Origin: an uncultured Aliarcobacter sp.
Lineage (GTDB): Bacteria > Campylobacterota > Campylobacteria > Campylobacterales > Arcobacteraceae
Direction: 5' to 3'
DNA: 64,000 nucleotides
NCBI GenBank assembly: GCA_963677435.1
Contig: OY781945.1
Span: forward strand, 252,879 to 316,878
Part shown: piece after piece, positions 19,523 through 31,889 of the stretch
Layout: each line of letters begins with the position of its first letter
Position numbering within the stretch: position 1 is the stretch's first letter
Notes under the pieces: generated by a model
What the model saw: the letters and a program-made list of their open reading frames with translations, nothing else
Told to the model about the DNA's origin: nothing
The model's database searches: none
Made by a program: the position numbers and the translations under genes

Positions 19523-19966
19523 ATGACAACTCTATTAAAAGAGTGGCTTATACAAAATGAATATCCAATTGATGATTTAAATGCAGTTGGAAAATATGGA
19601 AATTCACCACTTATGAAAGCAAGCAGAGAAGCTAATATCATAATAGTTGATGAATTATTATCTTTAAATGCAGATTTAAATATCAAAAATGTAGATGGAA
19701 ATTCAGCACTTTGGAATGCCTGTTTTGGTAACTCTTATGAGTGTTTCGAAGCATTAGTTCGTGCGGGAATTGATATAGATTCACAAAATGTAAATGATGT
19801 GACTGCATTAATGTATTGTGCAAGTGCTGGAAAAGAAGATTTTGTTGAATTACTTTTAAAATATAATGCACGCACTGATTTTGAAAGCTTAGATGGATTT
19901 AAAGCAATCGATTTAGCTGTAACTCCTAAAATTGTAAAACTACTAAAAAATGCAAATTTATCATGA
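19523..19966 (+). CDS. Ankyrin repeat protein
   Basis: GNSPLMKA, GNSALWNAC, TALMYCA...GK..FVELLLKYNA repeats; probable start ATG 19523. Confidence 0.9.
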   Translation: MTTLLKEWLIQNEYPIDDLNAVGKYGNSPLMKASREANIIIVDELLSLNADLNIKNVDGNSALWNACFGNSYECFEALVRAGIDIDSQNVNDVTALMYCASAGKEDFVELLLKYNARTDFESLDGFKAIDLAVTPKIVKLLKNANLS

Positions 19967-21203
19967 TCAAACTGATATAAATCAAAAGAAGTTTTTTAAT
20001 CAAGCAAACTTTATAGATTACAGAACTCAACCAAGAGCTTATAAAAAATATCCTCATTTTTATCAAAGATTTAATCTTGATGATTATGAGGAGTTAAAAT
20101 TTATAAAAAACTTTGGAAAAATCACCGCAACAAAAGCCTATGGAAAAGAAAAAGTTGATTTAAGAGCAAATCCAAGTGCTGGAGGATTATATCCTTGTGA
20201 GATTTATATTCAAATTCGAGCTGTGAAAGGTTTTGTAAGTGGGATATATCATTATGAAGCACTTGAAAACACTCTTACATTAATCCATGAGTTAAGTAAT
20301 GATGGAGTTGAATTTTATTTTAAAGAGAAAGTTCAAAGAAAATTTGTAATTTTAATCTCAAATGCCTATTTTAGAACTGTTTGGAAATATGAAAAACGAG
20401 CAATAAGATACTTATTACTTGATACTGGTCACCAATTAGGTTCAATTGTTTCTGCTTTAGAATTAACAGATTTAGAATATGAGATTGATTTTAATTTTGA
20501 TAAAAATAGTTTAAATGAAGAGTTTTCCTTTGATAATTATGAATCTTTTTATACAAGTATTACTGTGAAATCTGAAAAAACAATAGAAGCAAAAAAATTG
20601 CGTACACCAATAATAAATGTAAGCGCTTGTGATTATCAATTAAAAGAACCGTTTGTTGAAGAGTTTTATAAAAATTGTCAAAAAGATGAATTTGAAAAAA
20701 TATCTAATGCTAATTTATTAAAAGATATTACAAATGAAAAACTTCAAAATGCAATAAATAAGAGAAGATCAATAAGAGCTTTTACAAATGAATCTATTTT
20801 CGAAGAGGATTTTTTATTTATTACAAAAAATATTTTTGATTTTGCAAATAAATTTGGCATTGAAATATATTTTGTTAATAATAATATTCAAGGGATGAGT
20901 AAAGGTCTTTACAAAAATGTAAGCTTATTAAAACAAGGTGATTTCAAAAATAAAATGACAAATCTTGCCTTAAATCAAAAACTCTCAGGCCAAAGCTGCT
21001 TTTCACTAATTTTTACAAGTAAAGCTGGTCACAACTACTTCTATTGCTATATTCTTGCAGGTTTTATTGCTCATATTTTATATTTAAGAGCAACAACTTT
21101 GAACTTGAATTGTAGTGGAATTGGTGCTTATTTTGATGATATTTGTAAAGAGTTTTTAGAGACAAAAAACAATATTTTTTATCTTTTTGCCATAGGAAAA
21201 TAG
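19950..21203 (+). CDS. SagB/ThcOx-family (nitroreductase-fold) dehydrogenase, two domains
   Basis: RANPSAGGLYPCEIY, LLDTGH, RRSIRAF, GIGAYFDD motifs. Confidence 0.88.
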   Translation: MQIYHDQTDINQKKFFNQANFIDYRTQPRAYKKYPHFYQRFNLDDYEELKFIKNFGKITATKAYGKEKVDLRANPSAGGLYPCEIYIQIRAVKGFVSGIYHYEALENTLTLIHELSNDGVEFYFKEKVQRKFVILISNAYFRTVWKYEKRAIRYLLLDTGHQLGSIVSALELTDLEYEIDFNFDKNSLNEEFSFDNYESFYTSITVKSEKTIEAKKLRTPIINVSACDYQLKEPFVEEFYKNCQKDEFEKISNANLLKDITNEKLQNAINKRRSIRAFTNESIFEEDFLFITKNIFDFANKFGIEIYFVNNNIQGMSKGLYKNVSLLKQGDFKNKMTNLALNQKLSGQSCFSLIFTSKAGHNYFYCYILAGFIAHILYLRATTLNLNCSGIGAYFDDICKEFLETKNNIFYLFAIGK

Positions 21204-21267: not shown

Positions 21268-21663
21268 ATGAAAAGTATAAAAATACAAACAAACGAACCA
21301 ACAAGTGGAACTGTTAGAATTGCTTTTGCTACAAGTGATTTAGAAAATATTGACTCACACTTTGGAAGTGCAAAGCAATTTGCAGTTTATGAAGTAGGTA
21401 AAGAGACAACTACTGTTTGTGAAATCATAAAGATTGAAGATAAAGATACTGATAAAACTGTTGAATTATTAAAAGGTATAGACATTGTTTATTTTACAAA
21501 TATTGGTGCAATTGCTGCTGCCAAGATTATAAACAATGGAATATTTCCTATTAAATACAAAGATGTAGTTTCAATTGAAGAAGAAATTAAAAAATTGACA
21601 ACTATGTTAAATACAAATCCACCTCCATTTATTAAAAAAATTATTGAAAAAAAGGCTGCCTAA
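21268..21663 (+). CDS. nifX: Nitrogen fixation protein NifX
   Basis: RIAFATSD...IDSHFGSAKQFAVYEV, IGAIAAAK, NPPPFIKK; followed by the NifX-associated gene. Confidence 0.88.
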   Translation: MKSIKIQTNEPTSGTVRIAFATSDLENIDSHFGSAKQFAVYEVGKETTTVCEIIKIEDKDTDKTVELLKGIDIVYFTNIGAIAAAKIINNGIFPIKYKDVVSIEEEIKKLTTMLNTNPPPFIKKIIEKKAA

Positions 21664-21664
21664 T

Positions 21665-22096
21665 ATGGATGCTAAAAAACTATTTATTGAAACTTTAGTA
21701 GGACAAGTAAGAGCTTTAGACCAATTTGGAACTTGGGCAAGTAAAAGCAATGAAGAACTATTACAAGAAAAATATATCAGAACAAAAGAAGATTTAAAAA
21801 ATATTCCTATTATTGCGGATATTGATGAAATGCAAATCAAAGATATAAGACTTATTTTCCAAGCAGTTGCACTTGCATTTGAAAAAATAACAGGTGTTAT
21901 GGCTTCTGTTGTAATGGAAATGAGTCATGAAGGATTTGGAAGAGTTGTAGTTTTCGCAGGGAAAATTGTACTTTGTGAAAAATTCTTCAAAGATGCCCAC
22001 AGATACTCTTTTAGAGAGTATTCAAAATTAGAAGAAGAGGGTGAAAAATTTCTTCTAAATGCACAAGAAACTTACGAAAAGTATAAAAACATTTAA
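21665..22096 (+). CDS. NifX-associated nitrogen fixation protein (DUF269-like)
   Basis: LVGQVRALDQFGTW, MSHEGFGRVVVFAG, RYSFREYSKL.EEG; start ATG 21665. Confidence 0.88.
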   Translation: MDAKKLFIETLVGQVRALDQFGTWASKSNEELLQEKYIRTKEDLKNIPIIADIDEMQIKDIRLIFQAVALAFEKITGVMASVVMEMSHEGFGRVVVFAGKIVLCEKFFKDAHRYSFREYSKLEEEGEKFLLNAQETYEKYKNI

Positions 22097-22105
22097 GGAT
22101 TAAAG

Positions 22106-22621
22106 ATGTCAAGTATTGGAATATTTTGTGGAACTGCTGGTGGAACTTCAATGGCTATTGCAAAAGCACTAGCAAAAGAGTTTGATGTTGATGAAATCAT
22201 AAATATGGAAGAAGATTTTGACAATGTTGATCAACTTTTGGAATATGATGTTTTATTTTTAGGAAGTTCAACTTGGGGACAAGGTGATGTTCATCACTCT
22301 TGGGTTGATCCAATTTTAGAAATTGAATCTGATAATGTTGATTTTTCAGGAAAAACTGTTGCATTTTTTGGAGCAGGGGATTGTGTGAAACATGGAGAAC
22401 ATTTCTGTTCAGCACTAGGAAAACTTTACAAAACATTCACAAAAGCTGGAGCAAATGCAGTTGGATTTGTTCCATTAGATGGATATAAATATGAGTTCTC
22501 TTTATCTCAAATGGATGACAAACTTTGTGGTTTAGCAATTGATAACCACAATGAAAAAGCTAAGACTAAAGAGAGAATTAAAAACTGGATTGAAACATTA
22601 AAAGATGAAGTAGACTTATAA
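22106..22621 (+). CDS. Long-chain flavodoxin (NifF-like electron donor)
   Basis: GTAGGTS FMN loop, GSSTWGQG, FFGAGD, F.SALG, GLAID. Confidence 0.93.
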   Translation: MSSIGIFCGTAGGTSMAIAKALAKEFDVDEIINMEEDFDNVDQLLEYDVLFLGSSTWGQGDVHHSWVDPILEIESDNVDFSGKTVAFFGAGDCVKHGEHFCSALGKLYKTFTKAGANAVGFVPLDGYKYEFSLSQMDDKLCGLAIDNHNEKAKTKERIKNWIETLKDEVDL

Positions 22622-22635
22622 AAAAAGGATATGAA

Positions 22636-22977
22636 ATGCAAAGTGTAAATGATTTTTATAAACTAAGAGATACAGAAGATTTTTTTAATTTTTTTGATCT
22701 TGAATATGATCAAAAGTTAATTAATGTAAAAAGATTTCATATGATGAAAGAGTATGGAAGTCTAATTAAAAAAGGTCTTGATTCTATTTCAGATGAAAAT
22801 AAACTTTTAGAATTTCTAAAATTCTCACTACTTAGAGTTTATGGTGACTATAAAACTGGTCACTCTCCAAGTGCTGCTGATGTTTGGAATATGTATGAAA
22901 CTGGAAAGCTAGATGGTTGTTCATCATGTGGAACAAGTACTACAGGAACTACTCAAGGAGGAAGTTGTGGGTGTTAA
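22636..22977 (+). CDS. nifW: Nitrogenase-stabilising protein NifW with Cys-rich tail
   Basis: L.DTEDFFNFFDLEYD..LINVKRFHMMK, matching SAEDFF.FF...YD....V.RLHIL. Confidence 0.8.
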   Translation: MQSVNDFYKLRDTEDFFNFFDLEYDQKLINVKRFHMMKEYGSLIKKGLDSISDENKLLEFLKFSLLRVYGDYKTGHSPSAADVWNMYETGKLDGCSSCGTSTTGTTQGGSCGC

Positions 22978-23359
22978 TCATAAAGATATAGTTGATGCAG
23001 ATACAATTTTACACGATAGTGTAACAGCATCAAGATCAGGTAGAGATGAAGATGAACCAAAATTTGGTATAGGTCAAAAAGTAAAACTTCTTGAAGATAT
23101 AAAAAATGATGGAACTTATCCTCACGCTCCTGTGGGAACTATTATGGTTCAAGCAGGTGCCATTGGTTATATCAAATCAATTGGAGAGTTTTTACAAGTA
23201 ATCAGAGTGTATGAAGTTCATTTTTTGGATTTAAATGCTCTTATTGAAGTAGTTGGTTGCCGGGAACACGAACTATTAGCAATGGAAGATTATAGAGATG
23301 AAGTTAAAGAAGAACTTGAATTCATGAGACAACATAGAGAAAAGTATTACTCAAAATAG
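22967..23359 (+). CDS. nifZ: Nitrogen fixation protein NifZ
   Basis: PKF.IGQKV....DIKNDGTYP...G.I.V..G..GYI..IGEFLQ...Y.V.F...VGCREHEL; start GTG 22967 after AGGAGG. Confidence 0.92.
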   Translation: MGVNHKDIVDADTILHDSVTASRSGRDEDEPKFGIGQKVKLLEDIKNDGTYPHAPVGTIMVQAGAIGYIKSIGEFLQVIRVYEVHFLDLNALIEVVGCREHELLAMEDYRDEVKEELEFMRQHREKYYSK

Positions 23360-23367
23360 TTTTCATT

Positions 23368-23411
23368 CAAGCCAAGTGAAAGAGTTTAAATGAACCTTTT
23401 CACTTGGCTTG
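23368..23411 (+). other. Strong intergenic stem-loop (14-bp perfect stem) without U-tract
   Basis: CAAGCCAAGTGAAA (23368-23381) pairs with TTTCACTTGGCTTG (23398-23411). Confidence 0.8.
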
Positions 23412-23463
23412 GTGATCTTATTTTAGTAAACAAGTCTATTAAAAAGTAGTAAGGAGGAAAAGT

Positions 23464-23808
23464 ATGGCAAAAGTGATTTTTATGCATTTTGACACGGTAA
23501 CTGATGGGGTATATGATGCCAAAACTGGTGAACCAATTGTTAGGTTAGCAAAAGAGAAGAATGTACCAATTCCATTTGCAACTGATGGTGATTATTCTAA
23601 GTGTTTAATTTATGTTGAAAACTTAAGTGAAGAAGAACCAACAAGTTATATGGAAGATGAGGAGTTAGATATTTTAGTTAAACTTGGAGCAATAACTGCA
23701 AGTGAAGCTGAACAATGTCAACAATTTACAATCAGTCCAAAAGTAAGAATTGCGCCTATGATGTTAATCAAAGGTGATATTTTAGTAAAACCATTTAAAT
23801 TAAAATAA
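23464..23808 (+). CDS. 2Fe-2S ferredoxin-fold, FeSII (Shethna)-like protein lacking 3 of 4 cluster ligands
   Basis: VPIPFATDGDYSKCL and RIAPM replace IPFxCxxGxCxxCL and RLxCQ; long helical insertion; AAGGAGG RBS. Confidence 0.65.
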   Translation: MAKVIFMHFDTVTDGVYDAKTGEPIVRLAKEKNVPIPFATDGDYSKCLIYVENLSEEEPTSYMEDEELDILVKLGAITASEAEQCQQFTISPKVRIAPMMLIKGDILVKPFKLK

Positions 23809-23818
23809 GGGAAATAAG

Positions 23819-24115
23819 ATGACAACAAGAGTAGAAATCGTAAATGACTTTTTAGCAATTAATGTAAAACCAGGAAGTACAATTCAAGATGTTGTTGAAG
23901 CATCTGGTTCAGCTTTACCATTTGGTTGTAGAGATGGTGAATGTGGAACATGTTTAGTTTCAATTGAGCAAGGTATGGAATTTATCTCTGAAATCAATGA
24001 AAAAGAGAAAAAAGTTATTGCTGAAGCTGGAGCTGGGATGAATATAGAAAAAGCAAGATTATCTTGTCAAATGAAAATAGTTAAACCAAACGGTGTAATT
24101 AGAATTAAGTATTAA
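23819..24115 (+). CDS. 2Fe-2S ferredoxin
   Basis: LPFGCRDGECGTCLV...RLSCQ with all four Cys. Confidence 0.92.
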   Translation: MTTRVEIVNDFLAINVKPGSTIQDVVEASGSALPFGCRDGECGTCLVSIEQGMEFISEINEKEKKVIAEAGAGMNIEKARLSCQMKIVKPNGVIRIKY

Positions 24116-24168: not shown

Positions 24169-25416
24169 ATGGCACAAACACTTTCAATATCAACTGCTCA
24201 AAAGCAGAATTTAAATCTATCATTAAAGTTGTGGCTTCCAATGCTACAAACATCTATCCAAGATTTAGAATCGTACTTGACAAATTTGTCATACGAAAAT
24301 CCTTTTTTGGAAGTAACAAAATCAAAAGACTTTTATAGTAACTTTACCTCAAATGGCACAAGTGGAGAGTTTATTGAATCCCTAGCTTTTTATTCAAAAT
24401 CTTTGAATGATAAAATTAGTGAACAAATTGAAAATGAAGCACTATTTCCAACACCAAACTCACAAAAAGTTGCACTTGAAATCTTGTGTGATATCGATGA
24501 AAATGGATATTTTGATGGAGATATAGAAAAAATAGCAAATACTTGTAATGTATATAAAGAGTATGTAGAATCAATTAGACAAAGATTTGCAAGATTAGAA
24601 CCAAGTGGAATTGGAGCTAGAAATCTTCAAGAGTCTTTCTTATTTCAATTAGATTCATTTGATAGAAAAATTGATGATGAATTATATAATTTCACAAAAA
24701 AAATCATAAAAGATATTGCACATGTTGATAAATATGCAGGACATCATAGATTTAATGATGCAAAAGATATTATTAAATATTTTAATAATCCACCCGCAAT
24801 TGATTATATCAATGATAATGTTCAAGTTGTTCCTGATTTTTTCATAGAGATCAATGAAGACATTGATATAAAAATAAATAATGCTTATTATCCAGATATA
24901 AAAGTAAAAAATCCATTTATTACGAAAAATGAAAATATAAAAGAGAAACTAAAAGAAGCAAAAGATTTAGTAAATTTATTGAATTTACGAAAATCAACCC
25001 TTTATAAAATTGTTTTAATTATTGTTGAAAAACAGATATCTTTTTTTGTTGGAGGAGAGTTAAAACCTTTTTCTATGCAAGAAATAGCAGCTGAATTAGG
25101 ATTTGCAGAATCAACAATAAGTAGGGCAGTAGCAAACAAATATGTAGAATGTAACTTGGGAATTTTCCCACTTAAATTCTTTTTTTCAAATGCTGTTGAT
25201 AAGGATTTATCTTCATCACAAATTAAAAGTTATATAAAAAGTCTTGTTGATTATGAAGATAAAGAGACTCCTTTAACTGATGAATCAATATTAGAATTTA
25301 TTGAAACTAAATTTGGTTTAAAAATGGTTAGAAGAACAATTACTAAATATAGAAAGATATTAGATATACCATCTTCTAAAGAGAGAAAAAAATTATATAA
25401 GGTTGAAAATTTATAA
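24169..25416 (+). CDS. rpoN: RNA polymerase sigma-54 factor RpoN
   Basis: LKLWLPMLQ region I, ENPFLE, EPSGIGARNLQE, ESTISRAVANKY HTH, RpoN box VRRTITKYR. Confidence 0.95.
   Translation: MAQTLSISTAQKQNLNLSLKLWLPMLQTSIQDLESYLTNLSYENPFLEVTKSKDFYSNFTSNGTSGEFIESLAFYSKSLNDKISEQIENEALFPTPNSQKVALEILCDIDENGYFDGDIEKIANTCNVYKEYVESIRQRFARLEPSGIGARNLQESFLFQLDSFDRKIDDELYNFTKKIIKDIAHVDKYAGHHRFNDAKDIIKYFNNPPAIDYINDNVQVVPDFFIEINEDIDIKINNAYYPDIKVKNPFITKNENIKEKLKEAKDLVNLLNLRKSTLYKIVLIIVEKQISFFVGGELKPFSMQEIAAELGFAESTISRAVANKYVECNLGIFPLKFFFSNAVDKDLSSSQIKSYIKSLVDYEDKETPLTDESILEFIETKFGLKMVRRTITKYRKILDIPSSKERKKLYKVENL

Positions 25417-30896: not shown

Positions 30897-31889
<993 letters not shown>

Follow-up and report, generated by a model that had tools for sequence, protein, structure and literature searches.

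The ferredoxin FdxD (ferredoxin V) of Rhodobacter capsulatus is an O2-protection factor and, together with the 'ferredoxin V' of the Magnetospirillum type, it belongs to the nif-linked FeSII-type ferredoxins. The FeSII protein itself (Shethna protein II of A. vinelandii and A. beijerinckii; PDB 5FFI, 8RHO, 8RHP, 9CU0-2 and 9IEY) combines the adrenodoxin-type fold with an extra two-helix N-loop. The 2025 structures explain its action by one principle, viz. that the N-loop is set free when the [2Fe-2S] cluster is oxidised, and then clamps NifH and NifDK. In this O2-protection factor of nitrogenase, which is a dimer, cluster oxidation shifts the cluster loop, breaks a D44:K70 latch and frees the N-loop; the freed helix hN1 contacts NifH via R72:E69, K76:E112 and N73, K63 contacts D204 of NifD, the C-terminus (E118, A122) caps the [4Fe-4S] cluster of NifH, and E71:R99 ties the N-loop to the core (PMC11754109). 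In a literature search covering a part of the journals, no paper was found which links FeSII or FdxD with Campylobacterota.

The window described here is a stretch of 64,000 nucleotides from an uncultured Aliarcobacter sp. (GenBank assembly GCA_963677435.1, contig OY781945.1, positions 252,879 to 316,878), and it includes a nif region of the sigma-54 type; this region and all of the window features named below are on the + strand. Based on the ORF list, homology and an AF2 model, the ORF at 23464-23808 (referred to here as ORF114), which has the Shine-Dalgarno sequence AAGGAGG (23451-23457) 6 nt before its ATG, encodes a cluster-less FeSII/FdxD-type protein of ferredoxin fold with a length of 114 aa. 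Its former [2Fe-2S] cluster-binding loop, as seen in the alignments, consists of residues 36-50 (IPFA-TDGDYSKCLIY; 23569-23613), and no other part of the protein varies as much. When ORF114 is aligned with its four-Cys orthologues and with FeSII, ligand 1 is seen to be removed by a one-codon deletion (IPFA-TDG vs. IPFECQDG), ligand 2 is Tyr44, ligand 3 is Cys47, the only cluster-loop ligand that is left, and ligand 4 is Pro98 in the motif RIAPM (residues 95-99; 23746-23760), where the FeSII type has RLACQ. Tyr44, Pro98 and Met99 are thus at or beside former ligand positions, Arg95 (R99 of FeSII) is retained, and within the cluster-less clade position 98 is Pro, Ser or Gln. The FeSII-type N-loop insertion (residues 57-92; 23632-23739), recognised in the alignment and in the AF2 model, has helices predicted by this model at residues 65-73 and 79-88; it is acidic, with a net charge of -9 over residues 53-92, and its sequence (EEPTSYMEDEEL...CQQFT) is near-invariant. 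The second of its helices includes Cys85 (codon TGT, 23716-23718), which the orthologue alignment shows in 81/81 proteins of the loci set, the four-Cys orthologues included. The elements listed in a preliminary description of this DNA, viz. the 114-aa ORF with its AAGGAGG ribosome-binding site, the ligand changes, the remaining Cys47 and a Cys85 within the insertion, are all present in the sequence.

The genes of this type are annotated only as 'hypothetical protein' or 'ferredoxin'. No match to ORF114 is found in Pfam or NCBIfam, and Pfam Fer2 (PF00111), which the four-Cys relatives carry, does not match it at E <= 0.1. In a phmmer search of the PDB, FeSII chains from A. beijerinckii and A. 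vinelandii are the only significant matches (E 3.5e-6, 2.1e-5 and 5.3e-5); residues 24-108 of ORF114 align with residues 26-112 of FeSII, and this alignment is gapless over residues 61-108, its only gaps, of one residue each, being located at the first ligand and at G64 of FeSII. When the AF2 model (pLDDT 75.9; 30 family members as input) is used as a Foldseek query, the ten best matches are all FeSII chains, with FdC and generic adrenodoxins placed below them, and the best of these is 9cu1_N, a FeSII chain inside a nitrogenase filament (TM 0.78, rmsd 2.6 Å, E 9e-7). Further, when run against the genome of the window, a profile made only from four-Cys relatives scores 87 bits with ORF114 (E 2e-24), and no other FeSII-type gene was found in this genome by the same profile. 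FeSII scores 26 bits with the ORF114 family profile and 30 bits with the single sequence, and in profile searches the next group outside the Campylobacterota proteins is formed by the alphaproteobacterial FdxD/'ferredoxin V' types. Hence, the assignment to the FeSII type rather than to generic Fer2, which had been put forward in the preliminary description, is supported by the only PDB match, by the top Foldseek matches and by the four-Cys profile, and the FeSII sequence given in that description agrees with the PDB alignment. In terms of its sequence and its predicted structure, ORF114 is a FeSII-type protein, with an adrenodoxin-type (Fer2, beta-grasp) core and a two-helix N-loop.

Gene calls, protein families and synteny place ORF114 in one operon with the upstream genes nifX (21268-21663), a DUF269/NifX-associated gene, a gene for a long-chain flavodoxin, nifW and nifZ, which together extend over 21268-23359, where nifZ ends. 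At 10 nt after the stop codon of ORF114, and in a different reading frame, starts ORF98 (23819-24115), and it is the intact ferredoxin already pointed out in the preliminary description: a four-Cys [2Fe-2S] protein of 98 aa that matches Pfam Fer2 with E 1.3e-12, and whose Cys residues (37, 42, 45 and 83) are invariant in 81/81 orthologues. In a PDB search, its closest solved relative is FdC of R. capsulatus (E 1e-12), the match to FeSII being weaker (7.5e-6). It is followed by rpoN (sigma-54; 24169-25416), which by family and synteny is a conserved downstream neighbour. The order nifX-DUF269-fld-nifW-nifZ-X-Fer2, where X is the ORF114-type gene, is seen in 80/80 of the related loci fetched, and rpoN is next in most of them. 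A gene for a SagB-type dehydrogenase of nitroreductase fold (19950-21203 in the window) is located directly before nifX in Arcobacteraceae loci (L001-L022, L034, L059, L080), and no such gene was detected in the loci of Sulfurospirillum or Sulfurovum. RNA folding predicts a strong, perfect hairpin of 16-20 bp (23367-23411) between the nifZ stop and ORF114, with no adjacent U-run, the whole 116-nt region having -32.7 kcal/mol and a z of -4.6. No canonical terminator was found between these two genes, and the hairpin may be an element for mRNA processing or stability, or a partial terminator by which the relative amounts of upstream and downstream products are set.

The evolutionary stage at which the cluster was lost can be deduced from the other loci. 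In 17 of the 80 loci, the orthologue is 65-72% identical to ORF114 and has all four Cys (ECQDGxCGSCL, RLACQ). In general, the four-Cys orthologues found at this place in Campylobacterota (e.g. L050, L060, L068; P0151, P0167), with identities of up to 72%, follow nifZ and precede the short Fer2 gene as ORF114 does, but unlike ORF114 they presumably hold a [2Fe-2S] cluster. His8, the EPTSYMED stretch and Cys85 are already found in the 17, and the near-invariant acidic N-loop is likewise present in the closest four-Cys relatives of this slot. It would therefore be incorrect to interpret His8, Cys85 and the acidic loop as having arisen together with the loss of the cluster. In a tree of the 81 proteins and outgroups, the 17 four-Cys proteins are placed as the basal grade of a subfamily with good support (100/99), and the 64 cluster-less proteins, from 64 species of several families, form one clade nested within it (support 100/99, stem 0.22), the trees resting on about 113 columns. 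A tree of the best 120 matches had shown a long stem for the cluster-less clade (1.09 substitutions per site); however, this was due to the best 120 matches being all cluster-less, and the true stem is that of 0.22. The changes that became fixed along with the loss of the cluster are K10D, C44Y, M/K66E, A91S, L96I, C98P/S and Q99M. At positions 7 and 100, an extra Cys is frequent in the four-Cys Campylobacterota relatives (VIFCGFG, RLACQC) and Met is found at both in the ORF114 clade, and this paired change suggests that the two positions are in mutual contact in the core. A candidate intermediate form (P0123) was rejected, as its C-terminus is divergent and the scaffold from which it comes is 647 nt long; full-length proteins of the P0123 type (G386, G187) have four Cys.

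More distant four-Cys proteins (e.g. the Sulfuricurvum-type forms of 126-127 aa) are present in the same slot of other Campylobacterota. There is also a second cluster-less lineage, known from metagenomic contigs (L120 6001-6327; L122 6001-6327), whose proteins of 108 aa have the whole cluster loop deleted and read RLADQ (RLADQC) in place of RLACQ; they lack both His8 and Cys85 and are found in the same nifZ-X-Fer2-rpoN slot. A smaller tree is compatible with a single origin of all of the cluster-less forms, but in the larger tree two losses are the minimum: the second lineage is placed outside the first subfamily by well-supported branches, and the cluster must thus have been lost at least twice independently. 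ORF114 is probably a cluster-free descendant of a nif-linked [2Fe-2S] ferredoxin of the FeSII/FdxD type.

Relatives of ORF114 are limited in their distribution. In a search of 5.8 billion proteins 190 of them were found, and among the 120 matches listed (of the 190) all of the named sources are Campylobacterota. When each species is represented by a single genome, relatives are encoded in 94 species. Of 401 Campylobacterota genomes sampled evenly, 51 are nifH+ and 350 are nifH-, and the relatives of ORF114 are present in 36/51 of the former vs. 0/350 of the latter; nif linkage and restriction to diazotrophs, as in the FdxD-type ferredoxins, hold for ORF114. After the translation of borderline matches, a cluster-less form is seen in 22 of the 51 diazotrophs (divergent in one and frameshifted in another) and a four-Cys FeSII-like protein in 12; a further 2 have remnants, and the other 15 have no FeSII-like gene. 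From these 15 nifH+ genomes it follows that nitrogen fixation as such does not require the FeSII-like function. The slot is also sometimes lost, as is indicated by broken copies in three genomes, viz. a pseudogenised copy with two in-frame stops in G296 (C1:1442773-1443102), where the nifH match is sub-threshold, a short remnant with a stop in G344 (C19:29871-29993), and a gene with a frameshift near codon 94 in G352 (C30:243759-244090). Nine other species of the genus to which the window belongs (genomes of about 2.0-2.4 Mb) have neither nifH nor ORF114, the complete genome here being 3.12 Mb, and in this genus, which would then be largely non-diazotrophic, the nif region may have been acquired as an island. 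A four-Cys FeSII-like subgroup (P0143 type; L081 1737-2084, L082 523-870) is found outside nif clusters, where its genes adjoin a peroxidase gene and are near a thioredoxin gene; this context hints at a wider oxidative-stress role of this type of ferredoxin in Campylobacterota.

The pattern of selection differs between the former cluster loop and the rest of the protein. By pairwise Nei-Gojobori estimates, which are approximate because dS is high (0.6-1.1), the dN/dS of ORF114 is 0.16 overall, compared with 0.12 for ORF98, 0.19 for the flavodoxin and 0.21 for both nifW and nifX. Given the 190 homologues and this value, which is as low as those of the neighbouring nif genes, ORF114 is a real gene and not an ORF that arose by chance. 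For the residues outside the former loop, dN/dS (again approximate) is 0.117 in the cluster-less clade vs. 0.109 in the four-Cys orthologues, whereas inside the loop it is 0.39 vs. 0.24. Column entropy in the cluster-less proteins is likewise highest in the loop (1.70 bits vs. 0.3-0.5 in the N-terminal, N-loop and C-terminal regions), whereas in the four-Cys groups the cluster loop is the most conserved part. After the loss of the cluster, only the former cluster loop has relaxed. The earlier argument that the ligand changes are not due to decay agrees with the conservation of the loss under purifying selection across the 64-species clade; of two signs which the preliminary description had named together as speaking against itself, orthologues keeping four Cys do exist, but no relaxed selection is seen outside the loop.

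A protein which has lost its ligand site and yet is strongly conserved in dozens of species probably works by protein binding and not by redox sensing. Further, the N-loop and the N-terminal hairpin are common to the four-Cys and cluster-less members and did not relax after the loss, which points to protein binding as the core job of the subfamily. The main job of the Campylobacterota family would then be to provide a protein-protein interface, formed by the N-loop and the N-terminal hairpin, for which neither electron transfer nor Fe-S redox sensing is needed, and because such a job is independent of Fe-S, ORF114 could act as a pseudo-ferredoxin that docks on a component of nitrogen fixation. 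From these sequence comparisons, we consider it probable (at about 60%) that ORF114 is a cluster-free, FeSII-derived binding module, i.e. a pseudo-ferredoxin, which serves nitrogen fixation. Its likeliest docking target would be the face of NifH or NifDK on which ferredoxin or flavodoxin docks, the FdC-like ORF98 or the NifW/NifZ maturation complex being less likely targets, and by docking it would shield, stabilise or throttle its target. An acidic protein of ferredoxin shape, presumably co-transcribed with a flavodoxin and a ferredoxin, would fit the basic docking face of NifH, where it could shield the cluster or limit the input of electrons.

If ORF114 binds nitrogenase, it cannot do so in the manner of FeSII. 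The residue roles reported for FeSII (PMC11754109) were mapped onto ORF114 via the PDB sequence alignment, and of these interactions only E71:R99 survives, as E67/R95; both of these residues are found in 81/81 proteins of the loci set, and both columns are invariant in all three groups compared. The NifH contacts R72, N73 and K76 are replaced by L68, D69 and V72, and the NifD contact K63 by T60. The latch residue K70 is E66 in ORF114, and the redox-linked D44:K70 latch is thus gone; Glu is present at this position in 64/64 cluster-less proteins. However, this change should not be interpreted as coinciding exactly with the loss of the cluster, as the closest four-Cys orthologues mostly have Met there. 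Beyond the last strand that the two proteins share, ORF114 has a basic C-terminal tail, shorter by 3 residues than that of FeSII, and it has no counterpart of the acidic E118, which in FeSII is located next to the C-terminal carboxylate that caps the NifH cluster. The nifH gene of the window (30987-31847) encodes a protein that keeps E69, R101, N108 and E112, as read by alignment with the NifH sequence of A. vinelandii, the numbering of which agrees with PMC11754109. This NifH has a 12-residue insertion after about residue 83 (A. vinelandii numbering), and match lengths suggest that an insertion of 10-14 residues is common to the NifH of nearly all Campylobacterota that have one, whatever their FeSII-like type. 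Since the A. vinelandii set of contacts is unusable by ORF114, any binding of nitrogenase would need a re-made interface and would have no cluster-oxidation trigger. The more specific proposal that ORF114 is a cluster-free guard or throttle corresponding to the FeSII paddle, which docks on NifH/NifDK by means of a re-made acidic interface and has arisen at least two times in microaerophilic Campylobacterota, is possible but tentative. Such a guard could be constitutive or otherwise gated, such as by a partner ferredoxin or by expression level, the constitutive cluster-free binder being the preferred form of this idea; a role of ORF114 in O2 protection is at most a possibility.

The next explanation to be considered is that ORF114 is the dead partner subunit of the FdC-like ORF98, the two paralogues pairing as a heterodimer with one live cluster, whose docking or potential would be tuned by ORF114. 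The two genes are adjacent in 80/80 loci, and so they are in the lineages with four Cys and in the second cluster-less lineage; FeSII itself is a dimer (PMC11754109); and a paralogous relationship of the two proteins can be detected (BLASTP E 3e-4), ORF98 showing 31-37% identity to the four-Cys orthologues. However, of 24 genomes checked for the short ferredoxin, 23 have it, and as these include 14 of the 15 nifH+ genomes without a FeSII-like gene, it works alone. Further, the two genes are separated by anything from about 10 to 500 nt, depending on the locus, both proteins are acidic (net charges of -6 for ORF114 and -1 for ORF98), and no natural fusion of the two was seen among the matches of the homologue searches, a read-through fusion being impossible in the window because of the different reading frames. 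Gating of ORF114 by dimerising with its neighbour, as the preliminary description had envisaged, is therefore possible but weakened by the occurrence of ORF98 without a FeSII-like partner and by the variable spacing, and we regard a heterodimer as unlikely.

It is doubtful to a somewhat greater degree that ORF114 is a factor which, together with NifW and NifZ, takes part in the maturation or stabilisation of the MoFe protein (P-cluster formation) and is not a guard of the finished enzyme. The gene is always found directly after nifW-nifZ in one operon, and this synteny is the sole observation in favour of such a role. The described relatives FeSII and FdxD, on the other hand, are known as O2-protection factors, and ORF114 has no similarity to any maturation factor in Pfam or NCBIfam.

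Conserved residues of ORF114 could also be taken to indicate a metal bound by non-canonical ligands (His8, Cys85 and the residual Cys47 or Cys39), perhaps bridging two protomers. In the loci set, His8 and Cys85 are each present in 81/81 proteins and Cys47 in 66/81, and a Cys is found at the former first-ligand column in 29% of a 117-protein cluster-less alignment. However, the four-Cys orthologues already possess His8 and Cys85, so these two residues did not evolve as a substitute for the cluster; both are absent in the second cluster-less lineage, Cys85 is also absent in one divergent cluster-less orthologue (G313), and the former loop, to which Cys47 belongs, is the least constrained region. 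A metal site of this kind is thus very unlikely. The same observations bear on the thiol switch between Cys47 and Cys85 that the preliminary description had suggested: Cys47 is Ser in 15/81 orthologues, which makes the switch unlikely, and Cys85 predates the loss of the cluster. Lastly, although loss of its ligands would normally kill a ferredoxin and a few genomes do have pseudogenised or frameshifted copies (G296, G344 and G352), a functionless, decaying relic is hardly credible for a gene which has a strong ribosome-binding site, is intact in 64 species of several families, has 47 invariant residues in a 30-sequence family alignment, and outside the loop evolves under the same dN/dS as its four-Cys orthologues.

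The significance of the pseudo-ferredoxin reading lies in what it implies for the principle by which FeSII is explained. With the cluster removed at least two times and the rest of the protein held under the same selection, the binding role of the scaffold is separated from its sensing role, and this separation is testable, since the four-Cys and cluster-less orthologues are up to 72% identical and directly comparable. If ORF114 binds nitrogenase, a guard which needs no Fe-S assembly would be of interest for moving nitrogenase into aerobic hosts, and it would bear on nitrogen fixation by the microaerophilic Arcobacter, Sulfurospirillum and Sulfurovum at oxic-anoxic interfaces.

In comparison with the known systems, FdC (R. 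capsulatus, PDB 9I2A) has no long N-loop and is related to the neighbouring ORF98, not to ORF114. The FdxD-type proteins, unlike ORF114, have four Cys and basic hN1 residues of the K70/K72/K76 type. FeSII (122 aa) and ORF114 (114 aa) are both tied to nitrogen fixation, and the Glu-Arg latch E71/R99 of FeSII is conserved as E67/R95; however, three of the four FeSII ligands (C42, C47, C50 and C102) are gone in ORF114, the net charge of the N-loop is -9 in ORF114 vs. +1 in FeSII, where it is mildly basic, and the ORF114 gene, unlike that of FeSII, lies inside the nif operon.
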